A stretch of DNA of 64,000 nucleotides from the IMG/VR virus record IMGVR_UViG_3300049595_005065. One strand, 5' to 3'. How positions within the stretch are numbered: position 1 is the stretch's first letter; each line of letters opens with the position of its first letter. Both the position numbers and the translations under genes were made by a program. The notes below the pieces were generated by a model that was not told the origin of the DNA, made no database searches, and was given only the letters and a program-made list of their open reading frames with translations. The stretch comes from a virus. Taxonomy: Duplodnaviria; Caudoviricetes. This document shows positions 47,388 to 48,428 of this stretch, piece after piece.

Positions 47388-47726
47388 ATGTTATTTGAGC
47401 CGGGTCATCCAATCTGGGTGTTTCTGAGCGCTTTTGGAGTTTCTTCCTTTGCGGGTCTCGCCACGTATTTACGGTTTTCCCGTAAAATGACGCGGCTGGG
47501 GCTGTTTAGCGCTATGCTGAATGCTGGCTGCATGGGCCTGGCGATTTCGCTGCTCTGGTACCAGCACTACCGAAACTCGGAGAATATCTACGGGCTGATC
47601 GGAATCTGCGTGTTTGCCGGAATGAGCGGCTCGGCGGTGACCGACGTTGTGTGGTCGATTCTTTCCGGCGCTGGCATCAAGGTGAAAATCACCCACGAGC
47701 ACAACAGGAGTAACGAGGATGACTGA
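47388..47726 (+). CDS. Holin-like 3-TM membrane protein
   Basis: GGGAG then ATG 47388; three hydrophobic segments and a charged C-tail. Confidence 0.6.
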   Translation: MLFEPGHPIWVFLSAFGVSSFAGLATYLRFSRKMTRLGLFSAMLNAGCMGLAISLLWYQHYRNSENIYGLIGICVFAGMSGSAVTDVVWSILSGAGIKVKITHEHNRSNEDD

Positions 47727-47871
47727 CCGCAAACTTCGGCACACGCTCTCCGCGGCCGCCTGGATCGGAACCCTGCTGTGGGCGCTGGCGCTTTTGTCGA
47801 CCGCTTCTGCGGCGGTGTATCACGCGCGGGCGATCGCCGGGACCAGCACAGAAACGCAAGCTCACCCATGA
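47719..47871 (+). CDS. Small single-TM protein (50 aa, not in ORF track)
   Basis: SD CAGGAG; MTDRKLRHTLSAAAWIGTLLWALALLSTASAAV...; stop overlaps the next ATG. Confidence 0.65.
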   Translation: MTDRKLRHTLSAAAWIGTLLWALALLSTASAAVYHARAIAGTSTETQAHP

Positions 47872-48428
47872 GCCCTTTTACGATCATGATGAGCGAACCG
47901 CGTTCTGGAAAAATTCGCACCGTAGCCGCTTGGTGGGCCCTGGCTGCCTCGGTGCTGTGCGCCCTGCTGCTTTGGCGCTACGCCGCGGCGCTGAACGCCC
48001 GCGAGAGTGAACTGATCAAGGTCATTAACTATTCAGCCGACGCCGTGATTGTCTGCGACGCCCAGGGCAAAGTGCTTTTTGCCAACGACGCTGTCTGGAC
48101 GATCACCGGGTTCACCGAGCGCGATCTGGCCGACCACGGCCTGTCGCAGATCATTCCAGAGTATCTCCGCGACAACCACCTCAAGGGGTTGGAGCGAGCT
48201 CGTGACAAAAGCGACCGAGGCATTGAGGGCGTCCACTACCGGGCGATCTACCCTGTGCTGCGCAAGAGCGGCGAGCCCATCCTATGCTTGGTGAGCGTCG
48301 GCAGCGTGCTTCACTGGGGTAGCCCGCAGTTTTTTGCGTTCATTACGCCTGTTGCCGCCTCCGGCACGCCCAACCCGGCAGACAACCCGGCAAACTTGTC
48401 CGTCATTCCGCCCTCAAAACTAAAGTGA
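47868..48428 (+). CDS. Membrane-anchored stand-alone PAS-domain protein
   Basis: TM segment, then SADAVIVCDAQGKVLFANDAVWTITGFTERDL...LSQIIPEYLRDNH...RKSGE; ATGA-coupled start. Confidence 0.85.
   Translation: MSPFTIMMSEPRSGKIRTVAAWWALAASVLCALLLWRYAAALNARESELIKVINYSADAVIVCDAQGKVLFANDAVWTITGFTERDLADHGLSQIIPEYLRDNHLKGLERARDKSDRGIEGVHYRAIYPVLRKSGEPILCLVSVGSVLHWGSPQFFAFITPVAASGTPNPADNPANLSVIPPSKLK

Follow-up and report, generated by a model that had tools for sequence, protein, structure and literature searches.

Can a phage couple the timing of lysis to a chemical signal through a dedicated sensor domain? The question is raised by three overlapping open reading frames (ORFs), here called A, B and C, in a 64,000-nucleotide (nt) stretch of the IMG/VR virus record IMGVR_UViG_3300049595_005065 (Caudoviricetes). 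This whole stretch is referred to as the window, and positions are counted from its first letter. A encodes a small membrane protein that is likely related to holins, B a short single-pass membrane protein and C a membrane-anchored protein with a PAS domain resembling the oxygen sensor FixL. A and B are conserved together throughout a clade of related phages behind a structured RNA, and C is an addition found in one subclade. Our tentative answer is that the three genes may form a lysis-control module in which C would act as a sensor partner of the holin.

The window covers bases 10995-74994 of a linear record of 127,388 bp that CheckV estimates to be about 62% complete. The phage nature of the record is indicated by genes for collagen-repeat tail fibres, a Mtd_N tail protein and a SNF2 helicase, and its DNA is present in lake-water metagenomes. 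Related contigs are 197-206 kb long and one of them (G001, 203,910 bp) has terminal repeats; the source is therefore an uncultured clade of lake jumbo phages with a genome of about 200 kb. Relatives were studied in a set of 80 IMG/VR loci recovered with a profile of A. A search of 50,697 phage records gave no match to the DNA of the region, to the products of A, C and the downstream gene J, or to two distant members of the A family.

Organization of the A-B-C locus

The elements under study are the following.

47125-47352, + strand: structured RNA of 228 nt with covariation, directly 5' of ORF A
47388-47726, + strand: ORF A, 112 amino acids (aa), three transmembrane (TM) segments, likely remote member of holin superfamily III
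47719-47871, + strand: ORF B, 50 aa, single TM segment
47868-48428, + strand: ORF C, 186 aa, TM anchor and PAS domain

The serial overlap of the three ORFs, their coordinates and their numbers of TM segments are as described in a first-pass annotation made from the letters of the window. A and B overlap by 8 nt, with the ATG of B lying within the final codons of A (ATGACTGA) and an AGGAG-type ribosome-binding site upstream of B. C starts on the stop codon of B within the ATGA at 47868-47871, an overlap retained in every relative with an intact C, down to 53% protein identity. Antiholins are encoded within or beside the holin gene and co-expressed with it, an arrangement found in both the A-B and the B-C overlap.

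Two other gene starts were considered and rejected. An A of 158 aa starting at 47250 would run through the structured RNA, where insertions and deletions are not multiples of three and changes are compensatory. A GTG start of C at 47778 was discarded, as both the conserved N-terminus and the ATGA overlap place the start at 47868.

ORF A, a likely remote member of holin superfamily III

In the product of A, the hydrophobic segments lie at about residues 8-27, 37-58 and 67-92; the first loop is basic (RFSRKMTR) and the C-terminal tail charged (KITHEHNRSNEDD). From its charge pattern the protein is predicted to have an N-out/C-in topology. It has the features of holin superfamily III, whose members have about 90-120 aa, two or three TM segments and a hydrophilic charged C-terminal tail. 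A word-index search identified 199 relatives at E<=0.01; the 120 listed share 57-97% identity, and many are encoded on contigs of about 200 kb. Alignment of 28 homologues gives a mean column identity of 70% with many invariant Gly/Ala positions.

The first-pass annotation had called this product a holin from hydropathy and context. The call now has similarity behind it from PHROG families, Pfam families below threshold and a protein atlas, although the match of A itself is weak. The only family matched by A itself is PHROG 6384 "holin" (E 1.3e-3, over nearly the full length), which is also matched by 13 of the 28 close homologues; a search of Pfam with A alone gave no match. The A profile, run against 1.84 billion representatives, retrieved 312 clusters at E<=1e-3, 128 of them at E<=1e-10, all of small proteins (about 110 aa). 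Among 92 members of these clusters, 64 match PHROG 6384 (best E 5.8e-10), 15 holin PHROG 785 and 10 holin PHROG 175. Weak matches to the Pfam families Phage_holin_3_3 (10 of 92) and Phage_holin_3_2 (9 of 92) are below gathering scores (18.8 bits against 28.4). In a protein-atlas search based on protein-language-model features, every named neighbour of A belongs to holin superfamily III. We consider A to be a likely remote member of this superfamily, and its function would presumably be that of a holin. A GtrA-like flippase, suggested by the neighbouring glycosyltransferase genes, was rejected for A: there is no Pfam match, and the glycosyltransferases vary or are absent in relatives that keep A.

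ORF B and the distribution of ORF C

The product of B is predicted to cross the membrane once, with its basic N-terminus inside (N-in) and a short tail outside. A B-type ORF of 45-65 aa with a single TM segment overlaps the end of A in essentially all 80 loci; A-B is therefore a conserved core pair throughout the clade. Alignment of the B family from 32 of the 80 loci reveals an invariant Arg7 and a LSxAAW motif.

C has a much narrower distribution. It is found only in nine loci, those whose A is at least 79% identical to that of the window, and in the other 71 loci B is directly followed by a 2H-SAK phosphoesterase gene (D). Its 12 homologues are all about 185 aa long, share 53-91% identity and sit at the same position behind B. 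One of the nine loci, in the 197-kb relative G002 (L023/L032; L023 7484-7696), has C cut to a 70-aa TM stub. C is thus dispensable, and its linkage to A-B is an add-on of one subclade at a junction that accepts other inserts. Conservation of the linkage, considered a decisive point by the first-pass annotation, holds for A-B in all 80 loci and for C does not extend beyond this subclade. The G002 stub keeps the TM anchor and the first PAS residues and looks like a natural deletion of the sensor domain. At the B-D junction of two other lineages, loci L051 (about 3100-3320) and L104 (about 3010-3220) have an unrelated soluble ORF of about 75 aa whose product starts MDRFELE.

In the C protein a TM anchor at about residues 19-37 (47922-47978) is joined by a long helical linker to the PAS domain, which spans about residues 51-161 (48018-48350); the C-terminal tail is disordered and has the conserved motif KPA...PPS..K. 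Its anchor aligns with the B family in hhalign (E 1e-5 to 9e-5, score 22.9-28.5), against scores of 10.5 for the reversed control and at most 15.2 in 30 column shuffles. The simplest history would be the fusion of a B copy with a PAS domain.

The PAS domain of C

C passes the Pfam cut-offs for PAS_9 (33.6 bits, cut-off 27) and PAS (30.7 bits, cut-off 22.6). Pfam identifies the PAS domain alone, with no HisKA or HATPase, and the protein ends 25 residues past the PAS core, in agreement with the earlier description of a PAS protein devoid of kinase or other output domain. Judged from its sequence, C is FixL-like in its sensor domain only and not a full sensor kinase.

A profile search and a structure prediction had been proposed as checks of the FixL assignment, and both place FixL and other heme PAS domains on top. 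Searching PDB sequences with phmmer gives FixL of Bradyrhizobium japonicum (BjFixL) as the top match of C (8.7e-7). With a profile of 14 C homologues the top seven matches are all FixL (6e-10 to 1e-7), and the next PAS classes, the heme PAS FG214 and light-oxygen-voltage (LOV) domains, begin at 1e-5. The AlphaFold2 (AF2) model of C, with a predicted local distance difference test (pLDDT) of 74, has a single long helix that spans the TM anchor and the PAS N-cap; a standard PAS core of a five-stranded sheet and helices comes next. The top 15 PDB matches in Foldseek are all FixL, FG214 and the EcDOS/DosP heme PAS, out of 395 PDB PAS matches at E<=1e-3. Identity to FixL is 26-27%.

In BjFixL, His200 is the proximal heme ligand, Arg206 binds a heme propionate, Arg220 binds O2, and Ile215, Leu236 and Ile238 line the distal side; His214 also belongs to the residues around the propionates and the distal pocket. 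The His of the IIPEYLRDNH segment (48177-48179, + strand), singled out earlier as the possible heme ligand, is His104; phmmer and profile alignments both pair it with the FixL proximal ligand. It lies within helix 98-116 of the model and is invariant in all homologues. Arg110 (codon 48195-48197, + strand), also invariant, aligns with Arg206, and the distal positions Ile215, Leu236 and Ile238 correspond to Ile119, Val142 and Val144, which are invariant or nearly so. The residues invariant in the 14 homologues are His104, Arg110, Tyr124, Arg125, Val142 and Val144. This pattern suggests that the PAS domain of C binds heme, most likely through His104, a proposal to which we give a modest preference.

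A structured RNA upstream of ORF A

The 385-nt gap before A contains the structured RNA. Its conservation at the DNA level among relatives exceeds that of the flanking genes. It folds into eight helices closed by a 12-bp long-range stem. RNAalifold, applied to the 48 distinct sequences from the 80 loci, predicts 60 pairs, 44 of which have compensatory changes. Alignment cells are paired in 97% of cases, against 36-43% when the partners are slid, and none of 500 shuffles reaches the observed covariation. The G-U pairs are compatible with the + strand only. Searches with a covariance model give a single copy in each genome, 5' of A in every case, and a Rfam scan of 46900-48500 at E<=1 gave no match. 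The RNA is a well-supported class that had not been described previously.

The spacer between RNA and A is variable in length (35-45 nt), CA-rich and without a terminator, for which reason the A-B(-C) message probably has the RNA as its leader. Helix 3 ends in an apical loop (47181-47188) that reads CAUGGAUG in the window and ACAGGGAUGU in most relatives and resembles the CsrA consensus from systematic evolution of ligands by exponential enrichment (SELEX). CsrA is encoded in the complete genomes of the clade, and helix 3 is a lead worth following as a candidate CsrA-binding hairpin. A scan for sigma-70 promoters and terminators gave nothing above chance. A conserved CTTTGACAAC lies upstream of the RNA; with 8 sites in the window against 3.2 expected, it is not a clear repeat.

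A possible lysis-control module

We tentatively propose that A-B-C is a lysis-control module composed of a holin and an accessory sensor partner. The core, common to the whole clade, would be the structured RNA leader followed by A and by the translationally coupled 50-aa single-pass protein B. The add-on of one subclade would be C, inserted behind B, with a FixL-type PAS domain attached to an anchor that looks like a duplicated B. This B-like helix would place C next to A and B in the membrane, and C would probably be dimeric, on its long helical stalk. Binding of a heme ligand (O2, CO, NO) or a redox change would alter the association of the anchor with the holin, and hole formation would be delayed or advanced in an antiholin-like manner. 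The time of burst would then track oxygen or the respiratory state in a stratified lake. We infer the association between PAS protein and holin, the direction of its effect and the link of the module to the lake oxygen gradient; oxygen is a major gradient in lake water. Taken alone, the step in which C modulates lysis timing is somewhat doubtful from the present analysis. The view could be extended to an environment-reading lysis clock with two layers, where the heme-PAS antiholin C would make hole formation depend on oxygen or redox, perhaps acting from the periplasm, and the RNA leader with its CsrA-type hairpin would set holin translation. We regard this extended version as speculative and unlikely.

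Several observations weigh against the module and are accommodated by other explanations. A-B could be a holin pair and C an unrelated accessory gene, settled at a permissive junction and acting on a host signalling or respiratory component, on host heme or on the neighbouring 2H phosphoesterase. This explanation, including such targets, is conceivable without being one that we favour. The absence of C from 71 of the 80 loci and its decay in one lineage fit it well. So does the different small insert that L051 and L104 have at the B-D junction, which is an insertion hot spot, so that the position of C is weak evidence of function. Dense packing also goes on downstream (the C-D gap is 10 nt, the D-E gap 2 nt, and E/F and F/G overlap); the coupling is therefore not special to A-B-C, and the overlaps are weak evidence of shared function. 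Furthermore, the tail motif of C could dock another partner. An unrelated role of C does not, however, account for an anchor that resembles B beyond controls, for the ATGA overlap with B kept in all divergent intact copies, or for the finding of all known C homologues at this position only. A more radical alternative is that A-B is not a lysis holin at all: the pair, small and conserved, could form a membrane channel or remodel membranes and serve some other function in jumbo-phage infection, like control of membrane potential, superinfection exclusion or export of virion or protease components, tuned by C where present. A itself matches holin profiles weakly, the Pfam matches of its relatives are below gathering scores, and the PHROG "holin" label is an annotation rather than an assay. 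The conservation of A (57-97% across the clade) is on par with core genes and, together with its invariant Gly/Ala packing motifs, is atypical for fast-evolving holins; the position behind a large structured RNA likewise suits another role. An association with an endolysin gene, typical though not obligatory in holin superfamily III, was not found for A. Phage_lysozyme, SLT, Amidase_2 and Peptidase_M15_4 are absent from the record and from the complete relatives G001 and G002; GH19 and GH108 gave no match there either, but nor did their controls, and this part of the result says little. These six Pfam families made up the search, and M23, NlpC/P60, CHAP and GH25 were not among them. None of three distant A-family members examined has an adjacent endolysin gene; they are found among DNA-modification and glycosyltransferase genes. 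Yet the three independent similarity routes reach only holin families, and the size, topology and charged tail of A fit a class I holin. The holin LydA of phage P1 is likewise unlinked to the endolysin (PMC9025707). A role of A-B outside lysis is on balance unlikely.

The sensor function attributed to C depends on the ligand of its PAS domain. This domain is predicted to be more likely periplasmic than cytoplasmic, since in every C homologue the N-terminal flank of the anchor has more Lys/Arg than the C-terminal one and the B-like anchor is predicted N-in. PAS sensors with non-covalent heme (heme b) are not usual in the periplasm, and our confidence in heme binding was therefore lowered to the modest preference given above. 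FixL His214 is replaced by Gly118 in C (with Arg117 adjacent), and the FG loop is 2 residues longer, which makes the equivalent of Arg220 ambiguous; the invariant Tyr124-Arg125 are found there. Added to the low identity to FixL and to the scores of LOV and other PAS classes, these differences would suit a PAS domain with a different small ligand or no ligand, used mainly for dimerisation or scaffolding on a B-like anchor, the His being structural. Such a role, which overlaps the other alternatives, is quite improbable: FixL is ahead of every other PAS class by about four orders of magnitude, the best fold matches are heme PAS structures, and no homologue departs from the proximal His, the propionate Arg or the hydrophobic distal positions.

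Neighbouring genes

Two downstream genes give context.

48439-49566, + strand: gene D, 2H-SAK phosphoesterase with DUF5661, directly after B in the 71 loci that lack C
51849-52658, + strand: gene J, pro-matrix-metalloprotease-like, with a PG_binding_1 pro-domain, a cysteine-switch-like RRCGLPD and a HELGHALGLPH zinc site

The J protein matches human pro-matrix metalloproteases proMMP-1 and proMMP-3 over its full length (E 3.6e-18), and its conservation within the clade is 65-95%. No other protein with a peptidoglycan-binding-type domain (PG_binding_1) was found in the record. J could be an endolysin, a virion enzyme or something else. Apart from the 2H-SAK, matrixin and glycosyltransferase genes, scans of 18 neighbouring ORFs against PHROG and Pfam gave few names.

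The region 49569-57667 (+ strand) is occupied by a long series of genes that escape annotation, in which single-pass and glycine-zipper-like membrane proteins abound (E, F, G, H, I, K, L, M and the ORF at 56753). The very conserved protein N (54086-55111, 341 aa) was considered as a possible endolysin; its AF2 model has a pLDDT of 32 and no usable fold. Just upstream of the RNA, the segment 43810-47002 (+ strand) codes for a protein similar to uridine diphosphate (UDP)-galactopyranose mutase, a 487-aa nucleotide-sugar transferase with DUF3431 and a GT25 glycosyltransferase. This sugar-modification block is variable or absent in relatives. A 343-aa protein encoded at 41795-42826 (+ strand) has orthologues with precomputed Pfam matches to Volactin, an archaeal actin-like family; it is 76-94% conserved in the clade and always encoded a few genes upstream of A. 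ARAGORN identifies a transfer-messenger RNA (tmRNA) gene at 537-882 (+ strand; tag GTFNSAPALAA) and a tRNA-Met gene at 19228-19300 (+ strand).

Relation to known systems and significance

Phage P1 encodes the holin LydA and the antiholin LydB in an operon unlinked to the endolysin (PMC9025707). The A-B-C locus is similar in that a regulator gene directly follows that of a small multi-pass membrane protein within one operon. Among the relatives of A there are matches to the Pfam family of LydA (Phage_holin_3_3) and to holin PHROGs. The locus differs in that LydB has no predicted TM segment or PAS domain (PMC9025707), whereas B and C are membrane proteins, the latter with a sensor domain. The holin match of A itself is also weak, below curated cut-offs. 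In phage T4, membrane-tethered RI reads a signal through a domain outside the cytoplasm and keeps the holin T inactive. C resembles RI in concept only, as a membrane-anchored protein with a PAS domain predicted to be periplasmic, and no homology to RI was found. The T4 holin offers RI a large periplasmic domain, whereas A has almost none, and the signal in T4 is superinfection, not a small ligand.

On the sensor side, FixL of B. japonicum and Sinorhizobium meliloti and EcDOS/DosP are the best sequence and fold matches of C and share the proximal His. Unlike FixL, C is encoded by a phage, lacks a histidine kinase, is anchored by one N-terminal TM segment and is predicted to face the periplasm. 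Short LOV and other stand-alone PAS proteins like Pseudomonas putida PpSB1-LOV have a PAS core with flanking helices and no effector and signal by protein-protein contacts, as C might; short LOV structures are found among its fold and sequence matches. They are soluble flavin-binding photoreceptors, whereas C is membrane-anchored and has the residue pattern of a heme PAS.

The literature that we searched contained no paper connecting a PAS domain with holins, antiholins or jumbo phages. To our knowledge, the known lysis regulators (lambda S107, T4 RI/RIII, P1 LydB) read membrane energisation or superinfection and not a chemical signal through a dedicated sensor domain. C would be, if the two-layer clock is true, the first antiholin known to have a sensor domain, and phage lysis systems would gain their first known heme-based sensor. 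The upstream RNA is worth study independently of the cassette. More generally, the A-B-C module, if real, would represent a new form of the known holin-antiholin control, one that uses a ligand-sensing domain, and its three genes would offer a compact system in which to study ligand-gated membrane permeabilisation. The burst size and fitness of a phage depend on when it lyses its host. With a FixL-type PAS partner for its holin, a phage could tie lysis directly to oxygen or redox state, which would be relevant in stratified lakes, where hosts cross oxic-anoxic boundaries.

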